Virus record (IMG/VR): IMGVR_UViG_3300017527_000489
Length of the DNA: 46,029 nt
Reading direction: 5' to 3' (one strand)
From: a virus
Position 1 is the first letter of the stretch. Every line of letters starts with the position of its first letter. Both the position numbers and the translations under genes were made by a program. The notes beneath the pieces are model-generated. The model was given only the letters and a program-made list of their open reading frames with translations. It did no database searches and was not told the DNA's origin. Of the stretch, positions 3,692-40,658 are shown piece after piece.

Positions 3692-4101
3692 AGATAAGTT
3701 ACCGTTTCATCCAAAAGTAATTTAGTAAAACCTATTTCATCAAGCTTATCTTGAATCTTATTCAAAGTGGATTCTTCAAAGTCCTCATATTGATGCCCGT
3801 TAATACTGTGAACCATAACAGCTAAAGCCATGCCTTTAGGGCTGTATTCTTCTAGTGCATGGTGCAAGGTATTCTCACGGTTTATTAATTCAGTTTCGGC
3901 ACTTTTATAGTCCTCTGCTCTTATGTATCCCAAGCTTCTACCGCCTCGTTTCCTGTAGTCTTCGATACTATCACCTACTCCTAAATCAATCATCAGGAAC
4001 TTATTAAAACGCTGATAACGCCTAATCGTTAGAAGCCTGTCTGAGTCAAAAAACTTAATTATGTGCTTTTGCTTTCCTTGTTTAATTTCTACTTCATGCA
4101 T
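3667..4101 (-). CDS. Tail assembly chaperone (gpG-like)
   Basis: 144 aa, immediately upstream of the tape measure gene. Ends with a slippery A-run and an open -1 frame, the canonical G/GT arrangement. Confidence 0.65.
   Translation of the reverse strand: MHEVEIKQGKQKHIIKFFDSDRLLTIRRYQRFNKFLMIDLGVGDSIEDYRKRGGRSLGYIRAEDYKSAETELINRENTLHHALEEYSPKGMALAVMVHSINGHQYEDFEESTLNKIQDKLDEIGFTKLLLDETVTYLKKKLRKK
3682..3691 (-). other. Slippery A10 run (CUA AAA AAA AAA UUG), candidate programmed -1 ribosomal frameshift site
   Basis: Ten consecutive T on the plus strand. It lies 5 codons before the stop of the 144-aa ORF, and the -1 frame is open to 3341. Confidence 0.6.
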
Positions 4102-15351: not shown

Positions 15352-15603
15352 CTACGGGGTTTCCATATCCATAAGTCTTAAATACTCTTCTATTGTTTTG
15401 AGCTTGTCCATGTGGCACTCACTTGGTTTAGCCACTAATGCCATTATCTTGAATGCATAAACAGAATGAATCATATCATTGACCTTCGCTTGCTCATACC
15501 TACTCTCTAGTTTTTCTTTACTTTGCTTATCTATTGGCTTTACTTTGTCGTTTCCTTGTGGCAATTCCAACCCATATACTTCGTTATCGTTTAAATTACT
15601 CAT
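15352..15603 (-). CDS. Hypothetical protein
   Basis: 83-aa ORF. A 9-bp hairpin (15334-15342 with 15349-15357) spans its stop codon. Confidence 0.45.
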   Translation of the reverse strand: MSNLNDNEVYGLELPQGNDKVKPIDKQSKEKLESRYEQAKVNDMIHSVYAFKIMALVAKPSECHMDKLKTIEEYLRLMDMETP

Positions 15604-15977
15604 AGCCCTATCCTTTCCCTAAGTGACTCTAAATTATGTTTACCAGTTATCAACTTCATAATAGCATCTAAATTACCCTTTTGGTACTTTGGCAAGTCAT
15701 AGCTATAAGTTGCCGCCTCAAAACTTAGGTAATTATTAATACTAGCAAAATACTCTCCAACTGTATTAAATTCATCCTTTACAAGAACATCAAGCAAATC
15801 CTCGTTCGTGGTTTCTCCCCCTAGTTCTTCTATCAGTTCCCACTTTTCTTTCTTGTTCGCATCCTTGAGCCTTAGTATCTTTAAACGTGCTTTTCCGAAC
15901 TTTGTTCTGTACACCTTGGCTATGAACTTTTTATGTTTGCGGTGTGCTTGTCTTGCTTTCTTGTCTGCTAGTGTCAT
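15600..15977 (-). CDS. Hypothetical protein (basic N-terminus)
   Basis: 125-aa ORF with 4-nt overlaps on both sides. Confidence 0.5.
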   Translation of the reverse strand: MTLADKKARQAHRKHKKFIAKVYRTKFGKARLKILRLKDANKKEKWELIEELGGETTNEDLLDVLVKDEFNTVGEYFASINNYLSFEAATYSYDLPKYQKGNLDAIMKLITGKHNLESLRERIGL

Positions 15978-16111
15978 TAGTTTAATATTTTACTATGCCC
16001 TTTCTTGCCAAAAAAGAATTTAACCTTTGGCACAAACACGACCCCGTACTTCTTATCCTTCACCCACTTAAAGCACTCATACATTCTGCCTGTTTTTTCG
16101 TACTTGCTCAT
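15977..16111 (-). CDS. Small hypothetical protein (44 aa, below the ORF-track cutoff)
   Basis: Manual translation MSKYEKTGRMYECFKWVKDKKYGVVFVPKVKFFFGKKGHSKILN. Its TAA overlaps the next ATG (TAATG). Starts 10 nt after the last leader hairpin. Confidence 0.4.
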   Translation of the reverse strand: MSKYEKTGRMYECFKWVKDKKYGVVFVPKVKFFFGKKGHSKILN

Positions 16112-16121
16112 AATTTAATTT

Positions 16122-16152
16122 TAAAAAGGCGGCAGCATTCCCACACCACCAC
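16122..16152 (-). terminator. Terminator-like hairpin 3 of leader L1
   Basis: Minus-strand RNA GGUGGUGG..CUGCCGCC, 8 bp including 3 G-U pairs that exist only in the minus-strand RNA, then UUUUUA. Confidence 0.4.
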
Positions 16153-16177
16153 CTCGGACACCCAAATACTTATTTCT

Positions 16178-16211
16178 TAAAAAACGGTAGGAGGAACAAA
16201 CACCCCCTACC
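16178..16211 (-). terminator. Intrinsic terminator (hairpin 2 of leader L1)
   Basis: Minus-strand RNA GGUAGGGGG (16211-16203) paired with CCUCCUACC (16194-16186), 8-nt loop, then GUUUUUU. The one G-U pair is valid only on the minus strand. Confidence 0.65.
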
Positions 16212-16230
16212 ATACTATTATTCCCATTAA

Positions 16231-16288
16231 AGAATAAAAACCAAAGCACCTTAAAACGAATCGAACTTAAGTTATGAAAACGGTGCTT
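16231..16288 (-). terminator. Hairpin 1 of leader L1 with U-rich tail
   Basis: AAGCACC (16288-16282) pairs with GGUGCUU (16250-16244), 31-nt loop, followed by UGGUUUUUAUUCU. The loop is too large for a textbook terminator. Confidence 0.3.
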
Positions 16289-16292
16289 ATCT

Positions 16293-16323
16293 TGAATATA
16301 CTTCTTTTTCGGCAATTATGCAA
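16293..16323 (-). promoter_or_regulatory. Promoter-like motif P5: TTGCAT-N17-TATATTCA
   Basis: Same -33 hexamer and 17-nt spacing as four other motifs in this genome. The -7 box deviates from TAnnTTTG at 2 positions. Begins 2 nt after the upstream stop codon. Confidence 0.35.
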
Positions 16324-16324
16324 A

Positions 16325-19001: not shown

Positions 19002-19298
19002 ATGACAATAGTAAACGCAATCCTACTATTCGGGATAGGTTGGGGGTTTTGGCTCGTTTGGGAAGTTGTCAAGCACACACAGGCGGCTAAAATAGAAGCT
19101 TGGAGGTACAAACAACGAGTAATAAGAGAGTATGAGGCTATGAAGGTGCAACAGGCTTTAAAATGGGCAGAACGCAACAAGATAGAAGAGTGCGAGGTTG
19201 AGGAGTGGGATGTTGTGGAGCAGGGTAAAAGAGAGCCTAAACAATACCCCGTACTAAAACTAGAAATATCTAATTTACCAGTTAAAAATAGGGGATAA
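19002..19298 (+). CDS. N-terminally anchored coiled-coil protein
   Basis: 98 aa. TM segment IVNAILLFGIGWGFWLVWEVV followed by a charged helical region. Starts 3 nt after the upstream stop. Confidence 0.55.
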   Translation: MTIVNAILLFGIGWGFWLVWEVVKHTQAAKIEAWRYKQRVIREYEAMKVQQALKWAERNKIEECEVEEWDVVEQGKREPKQYPVLKLEISNLPVKNRG

Positions 19299-19348
19299 AT
19301 AGAAGTTTTACTATCTTTGTGATGTGTAATTCTCTATCTATCCCCCCT

Positions 19349-19379
19349 AGCCGCTGCATTCTGTGTAGTGGCTTTTTTT
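19349..19379 (+). terminator. Intrinsic terminator closing the plus-strand cassette
   Basis: AGCCGCT (19349-19355) pairs with AGUGGCU (19367-19373), including one G-U pair, followed by U7. Overlaps the stop of the convergent gene 19378..19998. Confidence 0.65.
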
Positions 19380-19998
19380 ATTTTACTTGGGCTGGGATGC
19401 GTTTTAGGTCAGATATAAGATACCGCCCTATGAAACCATTTGCTTTGTCATAAATAACCGCTCGATTCTCCTGTATGCAACAAACCAACCCTATGTCGCT
19501 TGGTAAACTAAAGTCTGCGCTGTCTGCCGCCTCGACTAGGCAGCCGAAAACTATTTCTTCGCTTTCCTTGTCGTTAACCTTATTCAGTCCAGCAATAGCA
19601 ATAGCCCAATCGTTGCCGTAACTCCCTAGCGTCTTTATTCTCCCACTGTTTTTGCCAATAAAATCACAATCATCCTTTAATTGGTCGTCAAATCGCCCCT
19701 TATCGTTATCAGGTGCGCCCAAATTTAACGCCTTTTCTGCTTCCTGTATATTTTGTCGTAAAACAAGTAACTCGCTCTTAAATCGCTCTTTTTCGGCTTT
19801 GAGTGCTTTGTTGTCGGTTTCTAGTAATTCGTTAGCCCCTCGCTCGGCTGTCAGTAGGGTATTGAGTTTCTTTGTAGCTTCGTTTGTTTCGCTCGCTTCG
19901 GCTTTGAGTTCCTTGATTTTCCCAATCAGTTCTTTTTCTAGCTTGCTTAGGCGTTTTTTAAAACCTTTAATCTGCTCTTTTAATAGTTTCTTTTTCAT
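19378..19998 (-). CDS. Hypothetical protein (N-terminal coiled coil, globular C-terminal domain)
   Basis: 206-aa ORF, the last gene of the leftward early block. Confidence 0.55.
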   Translation of the reverse strand: MKKKLLKEQIKGFKKRLSKLEKELIGKIKELKAEASETNEATKKLNTLLTAERGANELLETDNKALKAEKERFKSELLVLRQNIQEAEKALNLGAPDNDKGRFDDQLKDDCDFIGKNSGRIKTLGSYGNDWAIAIAGLNKVNDKESEEIVFGCLVEAADSADFSLPSDIGLVCCIQENRAVIYDKANGFIGRYLISDLKRIPAQVK

Positions 19999-20831: not shown

Positions 20832-21101
20832 TTATTTCGTTCTTTTAAGTTTATAAAATCGTTTATCCTCAAAGTCTCCAAACTCCGCCACATAGTACCC
20901 TTTTTTCTTGTACGTAGCTAGATGCTCTTTTACGGATTGGAGTTCCTTGGGTGTGTAAATTATCGTTATTGTGCTTTGTTCTCTAATTGTCATAGCTTCT
21001 AAAAATTGTTTTGCTATTGCGCCAACTGGCATCGGTTTATTAAAACGGTGTTTCAGATTCATTTGAAATTCTTTGTTTAAAGTTATCAATATGGTTTGCA
21101 T
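20832..21101 (-). CDS. Hypothetical protein (start probably at internal ATG 21032, MPVGAIAKQF...)
   Basis: 89-aa ORF. The annotated start overlaps dnaB by 62 nt; ATG 21032 lies just after the dnaB stop. Confidence 0.45.
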   Translation of the reverse strand: MQTILITLNKEFQMNLKHRFNKPMPVGAIAKQFLEAMTIREQSTITIIYTPKELQSVKEHLATYKKKGYYVAEFGDFEDKRFYKLKRTK

Positions 21102-22485
21102 TCATATCTTGCATAGTAACCAGTCTCATATCGTACATGTCACAAGTCACTTTGTTGTCTGTATCAAAATCGTAGTCCATGAACTCGGACATTCCCATAT
21201 CAAAAAACAAATAGTCTCTACCTATTTCGCCAAATCGGTTTTTCTTTGTTATCAATGCCGTTACACCTTCTAAGCTTCTGCCTTGTTCGTCCTCTGTTAT
21301 GCCGTAGTACCCTGGTCTGTAAATAAAAGTCACTACTGTCGCATCTTGCTCTATTGCTCCCGAATCCCTCAAGTCTGACAATTGAGGAACTTTAGAACCG
21401 CCTCTGGTTTCTACGGCTCGGCTAAGTTGGCAAAGTGGAATTATTGCAATACGCAAAGCCGATGCAACACCCTTTAACGTTCTTGATATAAATTCAATTT
21501 CCTTATTCCTGTTGCTTTTGGCTTCGCAGTCAATTAGCTGCATGTAGTCAATTACTACAAATTTTATATCGTGGTCTCGCTTTAGTTTGTGAATTTTAGA
21601 CACGATGTAAGTTAATTGAGGGCTTGTGTCGTCAATAAATAATTTAGAATCACTCTCTTTTGATAGTTGGTTGAAAATGTGTTCAATTTGAAGTTCTGAA
21701 ACTTTATTCTTTCTCAAATCTCCAGCAGATACGCCCGACTGTTGGGCTATCAATATCCTGCAAAGTTGCTTTTTACTCATTTCCAAGCTAAAGAACGCCC
21801 CACTATACCCAAATAGTTTTTGTGCGTTTTGTGCCATTTGTAGGGCTAATGTCGTTTTGCCCATAGATGGACGAGCCGCAATTATTATCAATTCCCCATC
21901 AGTTGATAAACCTCCTATTCGCTTGTCGTAACTCTCGAACCCCGTTGGCACTCCTGTTACTTCTTTGAATTTGCCCAAATTATCGCTTATTTCACGTGCT
22001 AGGCTTAACGAAACATCATGAGCCGTATGTTCTTCTTCTATGTGGTTAGATATTGCCTCATTTAGCGTATTTTGCGATTTGCTTATTTCTGTGTCAATAT
22101 TCGTATTCGGGTCAAACGCTGCTTGTGTTAGCTTGTGGTTTGATATTATCGTTTTCCTTCTTACGCTTTTGTCGTGCAGAATCTTGGCGCATCCAGTAAC
22201 ATCTACGTTGAAATGCTTACTTGTAAATTCTGCCATGCCAGCGAAGCCGCCAAGTTCCTCTAATTGCTTTTTGTTTTTTAGTGTATTGCAAATGGTCACT
22301 AAGTCAATATCTAATTTTTTGTTGTGGTGTTCAATTATTGCATTCCAAATATTCTGATGCTTGCTAGTGTAAAAACAATCTTCCGTTAGTAAGTGGATGC
22401 AATTAAATAACCCGTGAGGCACTAGTAGGATGGTGCTAAGTAAAGCCGCTTCAATTTCTGGGGCGTTTGGTAGTTCTTGGTTCAT
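21040..22485 (-). CDS. dnaB: Replicative DNA helicase, DnaB family
   Basis: 481 aa. DnaB N-terminal pattern APEIEAALLSTILL, GVPTGFESYDKRIGGL, and Walker A IIAARPSMGKTTLALQMA. Confidence 0.85.
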   Translation of the reverse strand: MNQELPNAPEIEAALLSTILLVPHGLFNCIHLLTEDCFYTSKHQNIWNAIIEHHNKKLDIDLVTICNTLKNKKQLEELGGFAGMAEFTSKHFNVDVTGCAKILHDKSVRRKTIISNHKLTQAAFDPNTNIDTEISKSQNTLNEAISNHIEEEHTAHDVSLSLAREISDNLGKFKEVTGVPTGFESYDKRIGGLSTDGELIIIAARPSMGKTTLALQMAQNAQKLFGYSGAFFSLEMSKKQLCRILIAQQSGVSAGDLRKNKVSELQIEHIFNQLSKESDSKLFIDDTSPQLTYIVSKIHKLKRDHDIKFVVIDYMQLIDCEAKSNRNKEIEFISRTLKGVASALRIAIIPLCQLSRAVETRGGSKVPQLSDLRDSGAIEQDATVVTFIYRPGYYGITEDEQGRSLEGVTALITKKNRFGEIGRDYLFFDMGMSEFMDYDFDTDNKVTCDMYDMRLVTMQDMNANHIDNFKQRISNESETPF

Positions 22486-23610: not shown

Positions 23611-24153
23611 TGATTCTAGCAATTCAAAAACTAACTCCATGTCTGGATTGCGGAAAGCATAATTAAGGTAGTCCGTTGGCTTGTTGTAATGGTAGTGATT
23701 TAATTTTATATGTTCCTTTATTGACTTCTCGGTAAGAAAAGCATTCTTGTATTCGTGTTCTTTAGTCACCCAAATCTCTCTGTACCCAATTTCTTCAAGC
23801 TTACTGGCGTAGTCGTTAGAATCAACTAATTGCGTAGCTAATTCTAATGCTTTTAGCGCAATATGCTCGTCTGAATCATCCTCTAACTCAATATGTTTAG
23901 ACATTTCATCTTCATTCTCATAGAAATAACCCGATAGAAACTCTATTATTTCCTTGTCCTCCCTTAATTCACCTTCCCCATTTTCGTTAATATAAATACA
24001 TTCACCGTTGCCCTCTGTGCTTATTACCTCTTTTTCGCATTGTATTTGATAAAAATAAGGCTTTGCTGTTGCCCTGTTGTCTTGCGTTTTGATTTCGTTG
24101 GATAGGTCTTTTAGTCTTCTGTATAGGTCGTCTGATATTGATATTGTTTTCAT
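23605..24153 (-). CDS. Acidic hypothetical protein
   Basis: 182 aa. My manual count gives roughly 40 D/E against about 20 K/R. The first 173 nt are duplicated in decayed form at 25621-25732. Confidence 0.6.
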   Translation of the reverse strand: MKTISISDDLYRRLKDLSNEIKTQDNRATAKPYFYQIQCEKEVISTEGNGECIYINENGEGELREDKEIIEFLSGYFYENEDEMSKHIELEDDSDEHIALKALELATQLVDSNDYASKLEEIGYREIWVTKEHEYKNAFLTEKSIKEHIKLNHYHYNKPTDYLNYAFRNPDMELVFELLESL

Positions 24154-24164
24154 AATGGTAAGTA

Positions 24165-24248
24165 TTTAAATAGAAAAAGCCTCAAAGGGTATGAATAGTT
24201 TAGGAACGTGCGGACAGATGCACATATACTATTCCCCTTTGAGGCTTT
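24165..24248 (-). terminator. Compound long-stem terminator of leader L2
   Basis: 14-bp stem (24176-24189 with 24235-24248), a 7-bp stem (24193-24199 with 24228-24234) and a 4-bp apical stem, followed by UUCUAUUU. Confidence 0.6.
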
Positions 24249-24322
24249 CACCAACAAATAAGATTTGTTTATTCTGTCCTATGTCAGCATTGTAGTGAGA
24301 GTTCCTAATTCTAACTACTGCC
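24165..24322 (-). ncRNA. Candidate leader RNA or small RNA L2 (about 155 nt, promoter P4 to terminator)
   Basis: A promoter-like motif at 24330-24360 followed by a terminator ending 12-18 nt before ATG 24153. Apical segments are complementary to upstream leader segments. Confidence 0.35.
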
Positions 24323-24329
24323 GTTACCC

Positions 24330-24360
24330 CAAATATACGCAACTTCTCGCAGCTATGCAA
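24330..24360 (-). promoter_or_regulatory. Promoter-like motif P4: TTGCAT-N17-TATATTTG
   Basis: Perfect TAnnTTTG -7 box and TTGC -33 at the 17-nt spacing shared with P1-P3. Starts 2 nt after the stop of the 57-aa ORF. Confidence 0.5.
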
Positions 24361-24536: not shown

Positions 24537-24562
24537 AATTGATTTTGGTTAGGGGGTTAGAG
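24531..24562 (-). repeat. Conserved gene-junction motif J2: CTCTAACCCCCTAACCAAAATCAATTATGAAA
   Basis: Near-identical to J1. A third partial copy (TAACCCCCAACC) follows the stop at 29623. Confidence 0.8.
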
Positions 24563-25216
24563 TTCAAAATTCAATACCCCTTGTGTTACTTGCTTTGATT
24601 CGTGTACTTTGATAGCTGCGTCTAGTATTGCTTTTCCAGCTACGTAGTCTACCAGGTTACGGGCTATCTTGTTTTTGCGCTGTGTTCCCTTGTAGGATGA
24701 TAGGTCTATTTCGTGGAATTTGCATAATATTTCTAATTCGTTTTTGATATTAGAGCCAACGACACCGCTTTCATTTTCCCTCTTTTTTGTATTGTATGGA
24801 ATTTGAAAGTTTGACCAATAGATATGCCTACCTCGCTTTTGCCCTGGAATAAGTAATTTATAAAACGGTATCACGTTCTCAATGCAAAATAAGCCCTCAA
24901 AATAGTGATGCAAAAGAATTATCTCTTGGTATAGCTTCATATCTGGGTAAGCGTCTTTAAAACTGTCTCTATTTTTCTGCGAGTGTCTAACTCGGCTATG
25001 AGTAGGACAAGGCGGTGAACTCCAAATAAAATCAAACTCTTTGTAATGGTCAAGCAAATACTGATGTGCATCCCCAGCTATTACAGTATCGTTCGGAAAG
25101 CGTTCTTTGTACATTCTCGCTAATTCGGGGTCAAGCTCAACGGCTGTAATTTCGTGACTGTCGCCCCATTTAAAGCGGTTTCCTCCCAAACAGGCGTATA
25201 ATATAAGTATTTTCAT
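24557..25216 (-). CDS. Miniature DNA (cytosine-5) methyltransferase
   Basis: 219 aa. Motif I LYACLGGN, II AVELD, IV SSPPCPTHS, VI CIENV, VIII-like GQKRGR, X-like ARNLVDYVAGKAI. The target-recognition region is very short. Confidence 0.65.
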   Translation of the reverse strand: MKILILYACLGGNRFKWGDSHEITAVELDPELARMYKERFPNDTVIAGDAHQYLLDHYKEFDFIWSSPPCPTHSRVRHSQKNRDSFKDAYPDMKLYQEIILLHHYFEGLFCIENVIPFYKLLIPGQKRGRHIYWSNFQIPYNTKKRENESGVVGSNIKNELEILCKFHEIDLSSYKGTQRKNKIARNLVDYVAGKAILDAAIKVHESKQVTQGVLNFEL

Positions 25217-25792: not shown

Positions 25793-27997
25793 CTAGAATA
25801 GGGTTTTTTGTCGTTCCTCAATAATAGCATCTCTATGGTTTTTTTTATTCAAGTTAAAATAACTCTCTTTTAACTCAATAGATACACTCTTTCTCTTCAT
25901 CTTCAAAGCAGTATAACCTTCTGACCCTATGCCCCCAAATGGACTAAAAACAGTATCTCCCTCGTTGCTATACAAGTGCAAAATGCGCTCAATAGTATCT
26001 AATTGTAAAGGGCAAATGTGTTTTTCATCATTCCCATCTCTAGCACTTCTATATTGCAACGTTCTTCTATAGTCTACATCCATCCAAACTGGAGATGCGT
26101 ATTTTTGCCACAAATCTACTGGCAAATAGTCGGGCTTGGTAAAATCATCCGCTTGATGTGTGATAGGCGTTTCGTTATCGCCTTCGTTTCTAAAGAACAA
26201 AACATAGTCAGGTATTCCAACTCTAGACATTACGCTATCCTTTTTTATAGTCTTATGGAGCAAACCAAGAGCCTTAGTTCTTTGCATTTCTGTTACTGGG
26301 TTCTTCCATATCGTAACCCGTGAATGATAAATAAAGCCCTGTTCTATAAACCAATTTATAAGCATTCCGCTAAAGTCTCTTAACCCGATAAACCCTTCTT
26401 TTCCTTTTTGAATAGGCAAATCCATACAATGAACCGCACATATTCTACCAGCCTTTAAAACTCTTTTGATTTGTGGAATCAAGTATTTAAAGTGATGCTC
26501 AAATTCCTTGTAATTCTTTACATTCCCCATATCCGCAGCCTTATCGCTATAAACATACAGCTCTGCAAAAGGAGGACTAAAAACGCATACATCAACACTA
26601 TTAGCTGGTAGACTTTTAGATGCTTCTACGCAATCCCCGTTAATTATGTGGTATCTATCGTTTTTTACTTCTTTTGTATCAACTACTGCCCCTTTTGAAG
26701 ACTTGTAATTATGCTCTGCGCTGTATTTTGCCATTTCTCCAATCATTTCTTTATGTTTTCCTTCTTTTTCTAAAATAGTTCTTCTTACGTTCGTTTGTGA
26801 TTCTGGAATAAGTATGTGAACTTTTACCTTTTTAGTTTGTCCGAACCTATAACAACGCCTAACAGCTTGATAAAAAGCCTCAAATTTGAAGTCGTACGAA
26901 CAAAAAACCATATTGCAGCAGTTTTGGTAATTCATCCCGAAACTAGCGATTGATGTTTTTGTTACTAGTACTCTAAACTCATTATCTGCAAACCCTAATA
27001 ACCTATCAGCCTTTGTTTGTGGTTTGTCACTACCTTGTACATTAACAGCATCATCAATGCTTCTTGATAGGAGGTCGGTTTCTTTGTTCTGTAAGCCCCA
27101 AACTATCCATTGTTCATTGTTTGAATTAACTAGTTCTGTCGCCAATTTTACCCTATCAGCCATTGAACGCCTTAAATCTTTATTCAAATCAGTTGCAGAT
27201 ACCGCAGCAGTAACAAATAAAGTATTAGTATTATTCTCTACGGGTATAATGTGTTCGATATACTCTATTTCTGGCAGGTCGTACCCTTCCATGTTATACC
27301 CTAAAGTACTAGGCTTATCTATAGATATAGACCATGTACATACAAACTTCCAAAAGTCATCTTTTGCATGCTTTCTTAGTCTCCATTTAGAAGTCTGCCC
27401 ACCATCATGAACAAAATACATAGCTAACATTTCTAAGTAACTCATAGCCCCTAAAAATTGGGCATGTTGTCCTAGTTCCATGTGGTCGTTTGGTGATGGT
27501 GTCGCTGTACATGCGAGTCTATACGGGGTTTGCTGGAATGACTCTATGATAAGTCTGCTTAGTTTTCCATCCCTTCCTTTTAAGATACTAGATTCGTCTA
27601 ATACAACACCCCCAAAGATAGAAGCATCTATATTCTTTAACTGGTCGTAATTTGTTATGTATATCCCATCCAAAGAATCATCGTTTCCGTTTTCGTATCT
27701 TGATATATTTATGCCAAATTTGACCCCTTCATTAATTGTTTGTTGAACTACTGCCAACGGGGATAATATCAAAACAGGTTTTTTTGTCTCAAATGCAACT
27801 TGCTCCGACCATGCTAAGAATTGAATAGTTTTACCTAGTCCGCAATCTTCAAACAATGCAAACCTACCTTTTTTGCATGCTAATTTTACTACATGCTTTT
27901 GATATTCGTATAAGTTTTGATTTAAGTCTTTAGCCTCGAATCCGCAAGCGATAAAACTCTTTTCTTTTGTCTTTAAAAACTCCTGATAATTATTCAT
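25793..27997 (-). CDS. SNF2-family helicase fused to an N6/N4 DNA methyltransferase (beta-class motif order)
   Basis: 734 aa. Helicase motifs DCGLGKT, VLDESS, CTATPSPND, QAVRRCYRFGQ. Methylase motifs DVCVFSPPF (IV) then VFSPFGGIGSEG (I). Confidence 0.85.
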   Translation of the reverse strand: MNNYQEFLKTKEKSFIACGFEAKDLNQNLYEYQKHVVKLACKKGRFALFEDCGLGKTIQFLAWSEQVAFETKKPVLILSPLAVVQQTINEGVKFGINISRYENGNDDSLDGIYITNYDQLKNIDASIFGGVVLDESSILKGRDGKLSRLIIESFQQTPYRLACTATPSPNDHMELGQHAQFLGAMSYLEMLAMYFVHDGGQTSKWRLRKHAKDDFWKFVCTWSISIDKPSTLGYNMEGYDLPEIEYIEHIIPVENNTNTLFVTAAVSATDLNKDLRRSMADRVKLATELVNSNNEQWIVWGLQNKETDLLSRSIDDAVNVQGSDKPQTKADRLLGFADNEFRVLVTKTSIASFGMNYQNCCNMVFCSYDFKFEAFYQAVRRCYRFGQTKKVKVHILIPESQTNVRRTILEKEGKHKEMIGEMAKYSAEHNYKSSKGAVVDTKEVKNDRYHIINGDCVEASKSLPANSVDVCVFSPPFAELYVYSDKAADMGNVKNYKEFEHHFKYLIPQIKRVLKAGRICAVHCMDLPIQKGKEGFIGLRDFSGMLINWFIEQGFIYHSRVTIWKNPVTEMQRTKALGLLHKTIKKDSVMSRVGIPDYVLFFRNEGDNETPITHQADDFTKPDYLPVDLWQKYASPVWMDVDYRRTLQYRSARDGNDEKHICPLQLDTIERILHLYSNEGDTVFSPFGGIGSEGYTALKMKRKSVSIELKESYFNLNKKNHRDAIIEERQKTLF

Positions 27998-28010
27998 TGT
28001 TCGATGTGTT

Positions 28011-28106
28011 AAATAAAAAAGCCCGTTTCAAAAGTAATTAATTGGCTTGGTGAGCATTGTCTATACACATCGAAAAGACAGCAATTAATTACCCTTGAAA
28101 CGGGCT
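28011..28106 (-). terminator. Compound long-stem terminator of leader L3
   Basis: 12-bp stem (28020-28031 with 28095-28106), a 10-11-bp stem (28035-28044 with 28082-28091) and a 5-bp apical stem (28058-28062 with 28076-28080), then UUUUUAUUU. Confidence 0.6.
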
Positions 28107-28152
28107 ATTAAATATTTTATTGATGTGTTATTTGCTTAGAGTACCACCTCAT
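28011..28152 (-). ncRNA. Candidate leader RNA or small RNA L3 (about 140 nt)
   Basis: TATCTTTG box at 28160-28167, then the structured element and U-tract. The 13-nt apical loop carries 10 nt complementary to -12..-3 of the downstream AUG. Confidence 0.4.
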
Positions 28153-28159
28153 AGCGTTT

Positions 28160-28167
28160 CAAAGATA
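28160..28167 (-). promoter_or_regulatory. -7 box TATCTTTG (P6), with a weak -33 region
   Basis: Perfect TAnnTTTG and the same octamer as P1 and P1'. The upstream hexamer TTAGTT is a poor match to TTGCAA. Confidence 0.3.
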
Positions 28168-28201
28168 ATATAATTATTGAAATAAACTAAGTAATGGGTA
28201 A

Positions 28202-28666
28202 CTATTTATTCAATTGTTCCAACCCGTACTTTTTGATAATGCTATTTATCTTAGCACGGTAGGATTTGGAAGTGAAATAATGGCACTCTTGGAGGGCATA
28301 AAGCCATCCTTTAGTGGTTTTCGGGTTTAAGCCTTTGTAACAGCCCTGATTTAACACTTTTGCCCACTTCTCGAAGCAAGCAACACGGCTCTCAAACTCC
28401 TGATACTGTCCGCTTTTCTTGATGCCTAACCAATTGCACTTATTGATACAAAGATTTGACGTACCCCATCCACTTTCTAGTGCTGCCTGTGCTATTAGGA
28501 GCGATACTGGCAGCCCGTTCTTGTCGCAGACGTGTTTTGAATCATCGTAGATATTGTTGATAAATAGGCTTACTCGCTTGTTGTCGATGTTCCGTAGACA
28601 ATTTGCCCTGTCTTTGTCCGTGCTTAGTAAGCAGAAGGCTATAAGGGCTATTATTATTCGTTTCAT
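28202..28666 (-). CDS. Endolysin, GH73-like N-acetylglucosaminidase with an N-terminal signal or anchor sequence
   Basis: 154 aa. The LLIAQAALESGWGTS motif is typical of the glucosaminidase (FlgJ/GH73) family. Hydrophobic N-terminus MKRIIIALIAFCLL. Confidence 0.7.
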   Translation of the reverse strand: MKRIIIALIAFCLLSTDKDRANCLRNIDNKRVSLFINNIYDDSKHVCDKNGLPVSLLIAQAALESGWGTSNLCINKCNWLGIKKSGQYQEFESRVACFEKWAKVLNQGCYKGLNPKTTKGWLYALQECHYFTSKSYRAKINSIIKKYGLEQLNK

Positions 28667-29969: not shown

Positions 29970-30635
29970 CTAAACACACATTTTAGGTTTAAAACTTCTT
30001 GTTTTTCGCATAAAATTAACTGGTTTAAGTTTTTTGGCACTCCTAAAGTCCTTAATAGCATCCTGTATTACAGTCCTTAATTCCCCGTTATCATCAGAGT
30101 TAAATTCCTTTACTATTTGTTGGGCTTTTTCTAGCATAGATATAGCATCTTGTATTGTTCTGTATAGCCCCAAATACAACCCCCCTCCATGAAAGTTATT
30201 ATTATCTGGAAGCGTTACTGTCGCTTTGTAGGCTGTTTTCCTTGAGTTAAAGGATATTCCTACTGGCACCCCTGTTAGTTTTGCTAATTTCTTACCGTAA
30301 TGGTCTTTTGAGTTATTTTCTCCACGGGTTATTCTTTGTAAATTACAAATCCTATCGTCATACGGAATGTTGTTAATATGGTCAATAACATAACCTTTCG
30401 GTATATCCCCAGCAAAAGCAAGTACCACTAAATGAGACACTAATGCAGACTTTGCTTTTCTCCCTCCATTCGATAAAGTCACAATTCGTCTACATCTAGG
30501 TTCTTGGGAAAGGTAAACTATTCCAAAGTATTCTATCTTTCTAATTCTCCCAATGTTGGATATTTCATAAAGCCCTGTGTAGTCAATTCCTTTGTATTTT
30601 ACTGGCTTCCATTGTTCTTTTGATAATACGCTCAT
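29970..30635 (-). CDS. HNH homing endonuclease (NUMOD4 + HNH_3, with an AP2-like C-terminal region)
   Basis: 221 aa. WKPVKYKGIDYTGLYEISNIGRIRK (NUMOD4-like) and HLVVLAFAGDIPKGYVIDHINNIPYDDRICNLQRITRGENN (HNH). Confidence 0.85.
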   Translation of the reverse strand: MSVLSKEQWKPVKYKGIDYTGLYEISNIGRIRKIEYFGIVYLSQEPRCRRIVTLSNGGRKAKSALVSHLVVLAFAGDIPKGYVIDHINNIPYDDRICNLQRITRGENNSKDHYGKKLAKLTGVPVGISFNSRKTAYKATVTLPDNNNFHGGGLYLGLYRTIQDAISMLEKAQQIVKEFNSDDNGELRTVIQDAIKDFRSAKKLKPVNFMRKTRSFKPKMCV

Positions 30636-35802: not shown

Positions 35803-36009
35803 ATGACTGTTCAAGAAATTATCAACATCGGAAAAGTAACAAAAGTAGACATTTTAAACTTTGTAGATGGCGTAGGGTGCTACGGTGAAGTACAAAAAAC
35901 ATTAAATGAGGCTACTGGCTTCGAGAAAGCTGGCATCGACATTAACACAGACGAAGCAACAAACGAAGAAATTCTTTCTGCTGGAATCATTGATGTTACC
36001 CCTTTTTAA
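35803..36009 (+). CDS. Small acidic protein
   Basis: 68-aa ORF preceded by the AAAACAAACAAAATG leader. Confidence 0.5.
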   Translation: MTVQEIINIGKVTKVDILNFVDGVGCYGEVQKTLNEATGFEKAGIDINTDEATNEEILSAGIIDVTPF

Positions 36010-39862: not shown

Positions 39863-40393
39863 CTAAATATGTGTTTCTGTTACTTGGGCATCGCCAACCG
39901 CTGCGCTCCAATACCCGTGAATAATACCTTTGTAGTCTGTTATTGTTGCTAACTTGCCAGCACCTACTTGTTTATTAGTAAAGCTTCCAATTCCTGCACC
40001 TGTTCCGTATTTTATGTACAAAGTGGATGTGCTGTTATTGTAAATATGCGCTGTTATTCTGTGTTCATTTGCGGCTAATAACAAAGTACTTGCCATTGCA
40101 GCAACTACTACACTTGATGTTGCGTTTGATGCTCTTACTATTACTTGCGCTCCTATAAATTGGTCGAGGTAGTTAATAACTGTCGCTTCACTAACTAATA
40201 GAGTTCCGTTTATGTCTTGTATTTTAGTCTTGTCTGCTATTAAAATATTTCTACTCTCGCAAGAAAAGTAAACGTCATTTCCTGATATAGAGTAATGTAA
40301 ACAGTCCATAGCGGTTATAGTAAACTCTTCGCCCTCTGGCTCTAAGTGAACGTTAGCCCCGTTTAAGTATATTTTAGTAACTGGATAAGCCAT
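39863..40393 (-). CDS. Tail-module protein carrying the shared N-terminal module
   Basis: 176 aa. KTKIQDINGTLLVSEATVINYLDQFIG aligns with the 87-aa and 490-aa proteins. Confidence 0.5.
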   Translation of the reverse strand: MAYPVTKIYLNGANVHLEPEGEEFTITAMDCLHYSISGNDVYFSCESRNILIADKTKIQDINGTLLVSEATVINYLDQFIGAQVIVRASNATSSVVVAAMASTLLLAANEHRITAHIYNNSTSTLYIKYGTGAGIGSFTNKQVGAGKLATITDYKGIIHGYWSAAVGDAQVTETHI

Positions 40394-40394
40394 T

Positions 40395-40658
40395 TTATAT
40401 TGCTTTTACTGCTCCAACAAAGGCATCTAGATAAGTCCTTACCGCTGCCTCGTTTCCGATAGCTGCACCTGCTGCTGTTTCCAAAAGCGTAACAGTTTCA
40501 ACCCCTAACCATACATACGGCTGGACTTGAAAAAAGTTAACAACTAGACCTTTTATATCATATTTCAAATTGCCTGACGAATAATTTGATATTGCGCCAG
40601 TTCCTCTTTGTAGTGTAACCTGTCCAGTTCCTGCTACTAAACCTATTCTTAAAGCCAT
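40395..40658 (-). CDS. Stand-alone copy of the shared N-terminal module
   Basis: 87 aa. ...VTLLETAAGAAIGNEAAVRTYLDAFVGAVKAI. Confidence 0.5.
   Translation of the reverse strand: MALRIGLVAGTGQVTLQRGTGAISNYSSGNLKYDIKGLVVNFFQVQPYVWLGVETVTLLETAAGAAIGNEAAVRTYLDAFVGAVKAI

Follow-up and report, generated by a model that had tools for sequence, protein, structure and literature searches.

A recurrent leader cassette with a predicted kissing loop before the SNF2::methylase gene of a Flavobacterium-type phage

Several described RNA systems come close to the leader treated here. It is called L3 and is the minus-strand leader RNA before the gene of an SNF2::methylase fusion, at 27998-28201 of a stretch of viral DNA of 46,029 nucleotides (nt) (IMG/VR record IMGVR_UViG_3300017527_000489), the whole of which is referred to below as the window. 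The unit PR'-6S-tR' of phage lambda is a Q-dependent unit of late antitermination, in which a strong terminator stands directly before the gated gene block. The predicted layout of the cassettes to which L3 belongs is like that of lambda, where a promoter is followed about 100-200 nt on by a strong intrinsic terminator and then by the gated genes, and where a short terminated RNA is made by default. The cassettes differ in that no Q-like protein or binding element was identified, in that they recur before several modules per genome, and in a covarying contact between loop and upstream partner, which is absent in lambda. Recognition through hairpin loops is also known from the antisense attenuation of pT181 and pIP501. 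There an opposite-strand countertranscript decides and a pre-emptor pairs with the terminator arm, whereas in L3 both partners lie on the sense RNA and the contact is made to the terminator loop. Kissing complexes such as L2-L3 of the purine riboswitch, RNA I/II of ColE1 and the phi29 pRNA contain covarying loop-loop helices of 6-8 base pairs (bp), like the cassettes, one family of which has 7-nt loops on both sides; yet none of them pairs the apical loop of an intrinsic terminator with a promoter-proximal 5' stem-loop.

The c4 RNA carries leader-encoded loops that are complementary to the ribosome-binding region of the next gene, with target copies a1/b1 and a2/b2, one of which lies upstream. 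L3 is similar in that its loop is complementary, over 10 nt at -12 to -3 in the window and also in a homologue, to the start region of the next gene on the transcript. It is unlike c4 in showing no sequence or structure match to the Rfam C4 family, in its release by predicted termination and not by processing, and in host phylum and regulated gene. In a passage of PMC8198154 that cites Citron & Schuster (1990), c4, icd and ant of the P1/P7 immI region are described as one operon. In addition, the terminator loops of the Escherichia coli small RNAs SdsR, RseX and ArrS act in the regulation of fepA (PMC11979758). As in the reading of L3 proposed here, regulation resides in the loop of an intrinsic terminator; these RNAs, however, probably act without base pairing, on a distant structure of the 5' untranslated region (UTR), and are host-encoded and dependent on Hfq and RNase E.

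L3, a folded 5' leader of ~160 nt, is the largest member of a recurrent family of such cassettes in Ficleduovirus-like Flavobacterium phages, and this kissing-loop family appears to be undescribed. Rfam 15 at gathering score gave no match in the window, in the full genome of the cultured Flavobacterium columnare phage FCV-1 (L089, KY979235), in five further loci or for the sub-families described below, and on the L3 leader at E <= 10 it returned only spurious microRNA-hairpin and other sub-threshold matches. L3 possibly works like a promoter-proximal attenuator, perhaps as a self-targeting RNA of the c4 type, and stands outside all curated RNA families.

Cassette layout and loop-to-upstream complementarity

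All sequence features of L3 that had been reported in a preliminary description (U-tract, loop, target, upstream copy and -7 box) were found, and they are listed here with the parts added since. U, L and D denote the upstream copy, the loop segment and the start-site copy.

28167-28160, minus: candidate sigma-A -7 box TATCTTTG (TAnnTTTG), predicting a transcription start at G 28155
28155-28134, minus: 5' stem-loop SL1, GCU-AU-GAG[GUGGUA]CUC-UA-AGC, its first base the predicted transcript start; predicted in the window and in the homologous contig L001
28129-28122, minus: U, upstream copy AACACAUC (8 nt), able to pair with the apical loop over 7 nt here and 8 nt in L001
28106-28080, minus: 5' arm of the long hairpin (27 bp)
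28079-28048, minus: apical region of 32 nt, with an optional 5-bp mini-stem (28080-28076 with 28062-28058), loop L and a 3' bulge
28074-28065, minus: L, loop segment UUCGAUGUGU, complement of U (7 nt) and of D (10 nt)
28056-28045, minus: 3' apical bulge UGCUCACCAAGC, a motif also present in the L078 leader
28047-28020, minus: 3' arm of the long hairpin, containing a second TAnnTTTG match
28019-28011, minus: U-tract UUUUUAUUU, adjoining the G+C-rich stem base; a terminated RNA of ~143 nt is predicted to end here
28009-28000, minus: D, ACACAUCGAA, -12 to -3 of the SNF2::methylase start, a second copy of the loop's target

In Flavobacterium the -7 box spans -12 to -5 (PMC9723704). In the layout shared by the cassettes, a sigma-A -7 box is followed by a 5' stem-loop where the transcript starts, then by an A-rich linker and a hairpin of terminator type whose apical region is unusually large; a U-run comes next, with the AUG 4-26 nt further on. 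L3 has this layout, with TAnnTTTG 61 nt upstream of the hairpin and AUG 13 nt past the U-tract, as well as an upstream complement of at least 6 Watson-Crick nt. Its dimensions (27 bp, a 32-nt apical region, an RNA of ~143 nt) exceed those of typical members, which have stems of 9-14 bp, apical regions of 21-27 nt and RNAs of 90-110 nt. Comparison within the family shows that the apical loop of the terminator hairpin pairs with a 6-9-nt upstream partner, situated in the loop of the stem-loop or in the linker, as a kissing loop or H-type pseudoknot.

The evidence for this pairing is comparative. L3, a second cassette of the window and the leaders L078 and L077 each carry in their 5' part a 7-8-nt complement of their own apical region, and its sequence differs from leader to leader (Fisher P = 9e-4). 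Over eight leaders, matched apical and upstream segments share complements averaging 7.1 nt and -16.1 kcal/mol, against 4.9 nt and -10.7 kcal/mol for the 56 mismatched pairs, and the matched average was reached by 0/20000 permutations. Because some of these eight leaders had been picked by eye, an automated scan was run over the window, the full FCV-1 genome and ~60 loci, and yielded 98 unique elements composed of a hairpin and a T-run. Sixteen of them form the cassette class, defined by a -7 box at most 90 nt upstream and an open reading frame (ORF) with ATG start at most 48 nt downstream. Here the upstream complement averages 7.31 nt, compared with 4.94 nt for the reversed upstream control and 5.44 nt for the downstream control; it reaches at least 7 nt in 13/16 cassettes versus 1/16 and 2/16, respectively (Wilcoxon P = 3e-4). 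The other three classes of the scan (e.g. no gene start downstream, or a gene but no -7 box) showed no excess of complement. The order of box, hairpin and AUG is constant in 16/16 cassettes, and stem-loops analogous to SL1 occur at the 5' end of all. The upstream partner lies 22-61 nt before the hairpin base and is mostly the loop of the stem-loop with which the predicted transcript opens; in L3, L078 and L077 it lies in the linker.

Two sub-families were retrieved from IMG/VR with patterns that leave the loop free. The first contains three loop/complement pairs, namely GUAGAGAG/CUCUCUAC in FCV-1, GUGAGACG/CGUCUCAC in L042, L090 and L092, and GUGGAACG/CGUUCCAC in L096. The second consists of six cassettes (L098, L100, L102, L103, L104 and L105) with the apical frame GGGGAUUCG-N7-CGAUGAACC and five different 7-nt loops; the exact reverse complement of each loop appears in a stem-loop 35-43 nt upstream, of which it is the 7-nt loop. 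In the alignment of this second family the kissing helix is 100% paired, 4/7 pairs are changed on both sides and the whole structure exceeds all 500 shuffles, counts which lean towards structure because the complement itself served to anchor the alignment. The internal loop on either side of the kissing loop has potential for tandem G-A/A-G pairs and is invariant, although neither the stems nor the loops of the six cassettes are alike. It might act as a kink allowing the loop to fold back, or be bound by a protein.

The cassettes might instead be independent genes for small RNAs of 90-145 nt, whose loops pair between molecules, as dimers or rings in the manner of phi29 pRNA, or hit other targets, and whose position before genes reflects a compact genome. 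The second family, presenting both partners as 7-nt hairpin loops, has the classical geometry of an intermolecular kissing contact, the predicted transcript starts at the 5' stem-loop and finishes at the terminator, and a genome has several cassettes that differ in loop sequence. Nevertheless, enrichment of the complement is limited to elements with a -7 box before them and a same-strand gene start no more than 48 nt after them, L3 is inherited together with the gene downstream, and no other promoter stands between the terminator and the AUG of the downstream genes, so that this explanation appears improbable.

The second cassette of the window (24151-24337, minus) heads a block that contains a DnaB helicase gene (21040-22485). 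It has two complements between apical region and upstream part:

24337-24330, minus: -7 box TATATTTG
24320-24288, minus: 5' stem-loop
24249-24173, minus: long composite hairpin, the most stable fold of the window (-41 kcal/mol)
24207-24200, minus: first complement, GUUCCUAA with UUAGGAAC (24308-24301, in the loop of the stem-loop)
24218-24212, minus: second complement, UCUGUCC with GGACAGA (24279-24273)
24153, minus: AUG, some 12-22 nt after the U-run UUUUUCUAUUU

At least two cassettes are present in FCV-1, at 35865-35997 and 40354-40459, with loop-loop complements of 8 nt and 7 nt before the genes ASD52463 and ASD52472. The SNF2 gene of FCV-1 has no leader, as it overlaps the upstream coding sequence. 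A search of related phages with a covariance model of the L3 hairpin, which the preliminary description had proposed, found the L078 leader before a GIY-YIG gene at 34 bits and, more weakly, the L077 leader before a DUF6291 gene. The 3' bulge motif UGCYCACCAAGC is common to L3 (28056-28045), L001 and L078 (3440-3452). In each of these leaders its ACCA can form 4-5 bp with a UGGU in the 5' stem-loop's loop, possibly a second tertiary contact; the motif being invariant, covariation lends it no support.

Before the SNF2 genes of L012 (~3880-3950) and L014 (~3790-3850), a long hairpin with a G+C-rich stem of 10-11 bp and a large apical region stands right before the AUG, and in place of a U-run an A-rich tract comes after it. 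Upstream of other SNF2 genes there are ordinary terminator-like hairpins (L021, L032, L051) or a tRNA-like sequence (L035/L036).

The L3 hairpin and its single homologue

In the minus-strand RNA, 28106-28080 pairs with 28047-28020. The 12-bp and 11-bp stems recognized earlier are real and are joined by G-C, G-U and G-U pairs into one continuous helix of 27 bp. The minimum free energy (MFE) of the hairpin is -38.8 kcal/mol (z = -7.3; 0/200 shuffles equally stable), which makes it the second most stable fold of the window in sliding 100-nt folds of both strands (mean -15.3, standard deviation 5.4); in the same comparison its antisense version folds more weakly. Most of the 32-nt apical region stays open in the ensemble, and the 5-bp apical stem of the preliminary description, while possible, is not selected by RNAfold. 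The pairing of U with L (GAUGUGU:ACACAUC) is part of the MFE structure of nascent-transcript folds of both the window L3 and L001.

The stem base GCCCG/CGGGC followed by UUUUUAUUU is that of an intrinsic terminator, whereas the apical region of 32 nt is far from the short loop (~3-8 nt) of such terminators; a consensus terminator scan with loops of 3-8 nt reported neither L3 nor the 24.2-kb hairpin of the window. An antiterminator overlapping the arm was not found, as the conserved upstream partner pairs with the apical loop and not with an arm. The helix is long enough for an RNase III site (~20 bp of double-stranded RNA or more), and with more than 20 bp of near-perfect duplex immediately 5' of a coding region it could serve as an RNase III processing site or as a 5' stabilizer of the mRNA, as do the R sites of phage T7 or the lambda N leader. 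Such a role would leave the U-run and the covarying loop partner unexplained, and since typical stems of the family have only 9-14 bp, it is judged highly improbable.

Homologues were sought among 64 IMG/VR loci with relatives of the SNF2::methylase, five further contigs (80-84% amino acid identity) and DNA-pattern scans of viral, metagenome and genome collections. In all collections searched, an L3-type leader occurs on one other contig only (L001, which is the same as L065 and L067). Megablast of L3 against phage genomes gave no match, three leader-derived patterns in IMG/VR retrieved the L001 contig only, and an 18-mer from the leader, searched in metagenome and genome contigs, found this contig plus chance matches in coding DNA. 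A pattern of the three copies (AACACATC..GATGTGT..ACACATC) returned the known contig and the expected chance matches only, and the closest SNF2 relatives retrieved (80-84% identity) were without any leader.

Homology between the DNA of the window and L065 starts at 28159, just 3' of the -7 box and 4 nt ahead of where the transcript is predicted to begin, and extends as far as the end of the SNF2 gene, while the upstream genes of the two are unrelated; the leader therefore belongs to the downstream gene and not to the endolysin. The SNF2::methylase proteins of the window and L001 are 90% identical. Neutral sites of this adjacent gene are saturated (55% identity at codon position 3, 42% at fourfold sites, uniform along the gene), whereas the leaders are identical at 124/141 positions (88%), their 5' parts at 47/54 and their apical regions at 29/32, indicating purifying selection on the whole leader. 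A recent recombination was considered as the source of this conservation; it does not fit a third-codon identity that stays uniformly at 0.38-0.66 throughout the gene, the first 50 codons included, and was rejected. The earlier view of L3 as a structured, terminator-like leader upstream of the SNF2::methylase gene is thus borne out by its z of -7.3, by purifying selection and by its inheritance with the gene.

SL1 is identical in L001 except for one base of the internal loop. The long stem has 7 substitutions at 5 pairs and none of its pairs is broken (0 pairs; P = 8e-5 against simulated random substitutions): two pairs have changed on both sides (U-A to A-U and A-U to G-C) and three have switched between G-U and G-C. 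The G-U pairs fit the sense RNA and speak for it, against the DNA or the antisense strand. The U-tract of L001 reads UUCUUUUUUU. Taken together, the L3 hairpin and its loop-to-upstream pairing are very probably real functional RNA features.

These comparisons also bear on simpler accounts. An ordinary constitutive terminator or insulator between modules, with loop complementarities arising by chance, would have just such a G+C-rich stem base and U-tract; an inverted repeat of at least 10 nt occurs in 6.7% of shuffled whole leaders, and terminator-like hairpins precede the SNF2 gene in several unrelated leaders. But conservation is ~90% both in the apical region (32 nt) and in the 5' part (50 nt) beside saturated neutral sites, L3 travels with the downstream and not the upstream gene, the loop-to-upstream pairing covaries across families, and loops of more than 20 nt are atypical of terminators, all of which makes a plain terminator very unlikely.

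ACACATC occurs five times in the window on both strands, and 3/5 of these are inside the L3 leader, where one 7-8-mer is present three times within 130 bp, twice direct and once inverted. L3 could accordingly be regarded as a DNA-level element, that is, an operator with three ACACATC protein sites, a cruciform, or a miniature inverted-repeat transposable element with its target-site duplication. This is extremely improbable. The motif differs in every cassette while the complementarity is kept, which indicates pairing and not a protein site; the G-U pairs are strand-specific; and a target-site duplication would leave the inverted copy in the loop unexplained, nor do the repeats abut the inverted repeat. 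Transposable element and protein operator were rejected on these grounds.

Two further candidates were examined within the leader. A second perfect TAnnTTTG, TACTTTTG (28036-28029, minus), lies inside the 3' arm and would leave the SNF2 gene a 5' UTR of ~27 nt. A promoter at this place was rejected and the match is probably due to chance, as it is degenerate in L001 (TACCCTTG), absent from analogous leaders and one of 66 TAnnTTTG occurrences in the window. An 11-codon ORF (MRWYSKQITHQ*, ATG 28152 to TAA 28117, minus) spans SL1 together with the upstream target copy; L001 retains it with a GTG start (MRWYSKLITHH*), and its stop lies 10 nt before the hairpin base. A leader peptide was rejected as unsupported, since the ORF is free of synonymous bias, sits within SL1 and would have hardly any 5' leader; it is probably untranslated.

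Loop-to-start pairing and control of the downstream gene

Besides the upstream copy, L has a partner at the start site: UUCGAUGUGU is a perfect 10-nt complement of ACACAUCGAA, with a duplex energy of -14.4 kcal/mol. A complement of at least 10 nt between apical region and start region arises in 0.06-0.3% of shuffles, so that the chance of about one in a hundred estimated earlier was fair for a single leader, in view of this figure and of the 6.7% for any inverted repeat, and is not compelling alone. Judged from L3 by itself, the match exceeds chance only moderately, and the decisive evidence is comparative. In L001, the loop is CUUCGAUGUGUUU, the start region UAAACACAUCACAAUG and the target UAAACACAUC. 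The complement GAUGUGUUUA:UAAACACAUC has 10 Watson-Crick pairs (12 with G-U) and -14.7 kcal/mol, in a register shifted by 3 nt. Relative to the window, GAA has been lost on one side through a 2-nt deletion and three pairs have been gained on the other through A-to-U in the loop and U-to-A in the target. The probability of such a complement is ~0.001 in each of the two sequences. The preservation of the match in a homologue, for which the preliminary description had called, was hence observed, at 10 nt, though loop and target have both changed.

Elsewhere, start-region complements are mostly 3-5 nt (n = 7 leaders checked): five leaders have 3-5 nt, L051 has 6 nt (P 0.016) and hp2 has 4-6 nt depending on the search window. 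In L016, a complement of 7 nt lies on the downstream side, according to the listing of the automated scan alone. Since only upstream pairing recurs across the family, the upstream copy U is taken as the family-wide partner and the loop-start match as a lineage-specific addition. The proposal that the start site is the partner of the loop therefore stands in so far as the match is kept in L001, while the partner that covaries throughout the family is the upstream copy, which had been mentioned as a side remark.

It is against this background that translational control has to be weighed. L3 might exist primarily for the translational control of the SNF2::methylase by loop-to-start pairing, either as a cis pseudoknot or through a self-targeting antisense RNA of ~140 nt, like c4. 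The target copies flank the hairpin on both sides, as a1/b1 and a2/b2 do around c4; L and D are largely unpaired in the ensemble; and the complement at -12 to -3 is kept in L001 with shifted register. Moreover, the structure of the translation initiation region (TIR) and adenines at -3 and -12 affect initiation in Flavobacterium (PMC6847099), and D includes both A-3 and A-12. Nevertheless, the clearly covarying partner of the loop is the upstream one, start-region complements in other leaders are short, and there is one homologue only. Forcing L to pair with D yields a fold that falls 13 kcal/mol short of the hairpin in stability, and the cis pseudoknot suggested earlier is sterically unlikely in the folded state, because a linker of 10 nt would have to span a helix of ~95 Angstrom. 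A primary role in translational control is consequently held to be rather unlikely. Whether as primary role or as addition, regulation of SNF2::methylase translation by loop-to-start pairing is put forward tentatively, as a possibility somewhat short of an even case.

As to the cassette as a whole, L3 may be a promoter-proximal conditional terminator (attenuator), a proposal for which the case is about evenly poised. The cassette would gate the expression of the module behind it, with a short terminated RNA, of ~143 nt in L3, as its default product. The downstream module would need read-through because the order of promoter, terminator and AUG leaves no room for another promoter. In at least one case, L042, the cassette comes after the previous gene's own terminator-like hairpin, and with no second promoter, this would mean expression by read-through and hence a conditional terminator. 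How efficiently the long stem closes at the U-tract would depend on the contact between loop and upstream partner, made while the 3' arm is still to be transcribed. A pre-formed contact between U and L would close the 5' arm into a loop and should hinder the winding of the long stem, and an antiterminator effect is therefore predicted. Alternatively, a loop-loop contact of 7 bp may coexist with the short stems, and the G-A-rich internal loop of the second sub-family could be the bend that enables it.

Specific to L3, the loop of terminated RNAs would mask -12 to -3 of read-through mRNAs, mainly in trans. The terminated RNAs of ~143 nt expose L and are without D, and would thus be free to mask the start site of read-through transcripts, keeping leaky transcripts silent until read-through predominates. 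The best explanation overall, a conditional terminator combined with start-site masking by the loop, probably in trans, is one about which we remain equally divided.

Several points weigh against this combined reading. Promoter use, termination and read-through of L3 are all predicted from sequence. The -7 box, although a perfect TAnnTTTG in the window as described before, is not conserved in L001/L065 (TAAATTGC). Because the partner pairs with the loop and not with an arm, its effect on termination could be positive, negative or none. The upstream partner of L3 lies in the linker and not, as in most cassettes, in the loop of the stem-loop, and among inspected cassettes a clear start-site copy is seen in the L3 lineage alone. 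The kept 10-nt start-site complement is suggestive, comparing two sequences with a conditional P of ~0.05 given their shared 7-nt core; an ancestral 13-nt complement that decayed neutrally, on opposite sides in each lineage, would look alike. Finally, four of the first eight leaders were chosen after inspection by eye, which the scan and the pattern families answer only partly, and the anchored alignment of the second sub-family leans the same way.

Genomic setting and significance

The source genome of the window is that of a Flavobacterium-type siphophage. The genes on either side of L3 are the following:

25793-27997, minus: SNF2-helicase::N6/N4 DNA methylase fusion gene (734 amino acids; domains SNF2, Helicase_C and N6_N4 methylase), with which the L3 leader travels
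28202-28666, minus: glucosaminidase-type endolysin gene, upstream of L3

The SNF2::methylase has ~71% protein identity to those of the F. columnare phages FCV/FCOV (genus Ficleduovirus), and exact-protein look-ups with it and with the endolysin found nothing on record. A C5 cytosine methylase gene (24557-25216, minus) lies downstream of the SNF2::N6/N4 methylase in the same block, and a homing-endonuclease-like gene of the HNH/NUMOD4 type (29970-30635, minus) lies upstream of the lysis gene. Elsewhere in the window, the 347-nt gap at 15978-16324 before the gene 15600-15977 is strongly structured, with three terminator-like hairpins, as is 19276-19375, a hairpin pair between the convergent genes 19002-19298 (plus) and 19378-19998 (minus).

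Gene regulation in phages of Bacteroidota is almost unexplored, and their hosts lack initiation based on Shine-Dalgarno sequences. A recurrent leader RNA with covariation support, standing ahead of modules for DNA modification and replication, would be this phage group's first candidate for a temporal control device. In a wider and more doubtful proposal, Flavobacterium phages would gate early and middle modules by a modular RNA switch, in which the contact of a 7-nt apical terminator loop with a matching 7-nt loop at the 5' end of the transcript, an address particular to each cassette, decides between termination and read-through, and the L3 loop would in addition silence the start site of escaped mRNAs in trans, self-targeting like c4 of P1 and independently arisen in a Bacteroidota phage. 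The device is testable, because the cultured phage FCV-1 of the fish pathogen F. columnare carries two cassettes. Standard terminator finders with loops of 3-8 nt miss the whole large-loop family, and its programmable design, a terminator addressed by a 7-nt loop, would be of interest for synthetic biology in Bacteroidota.

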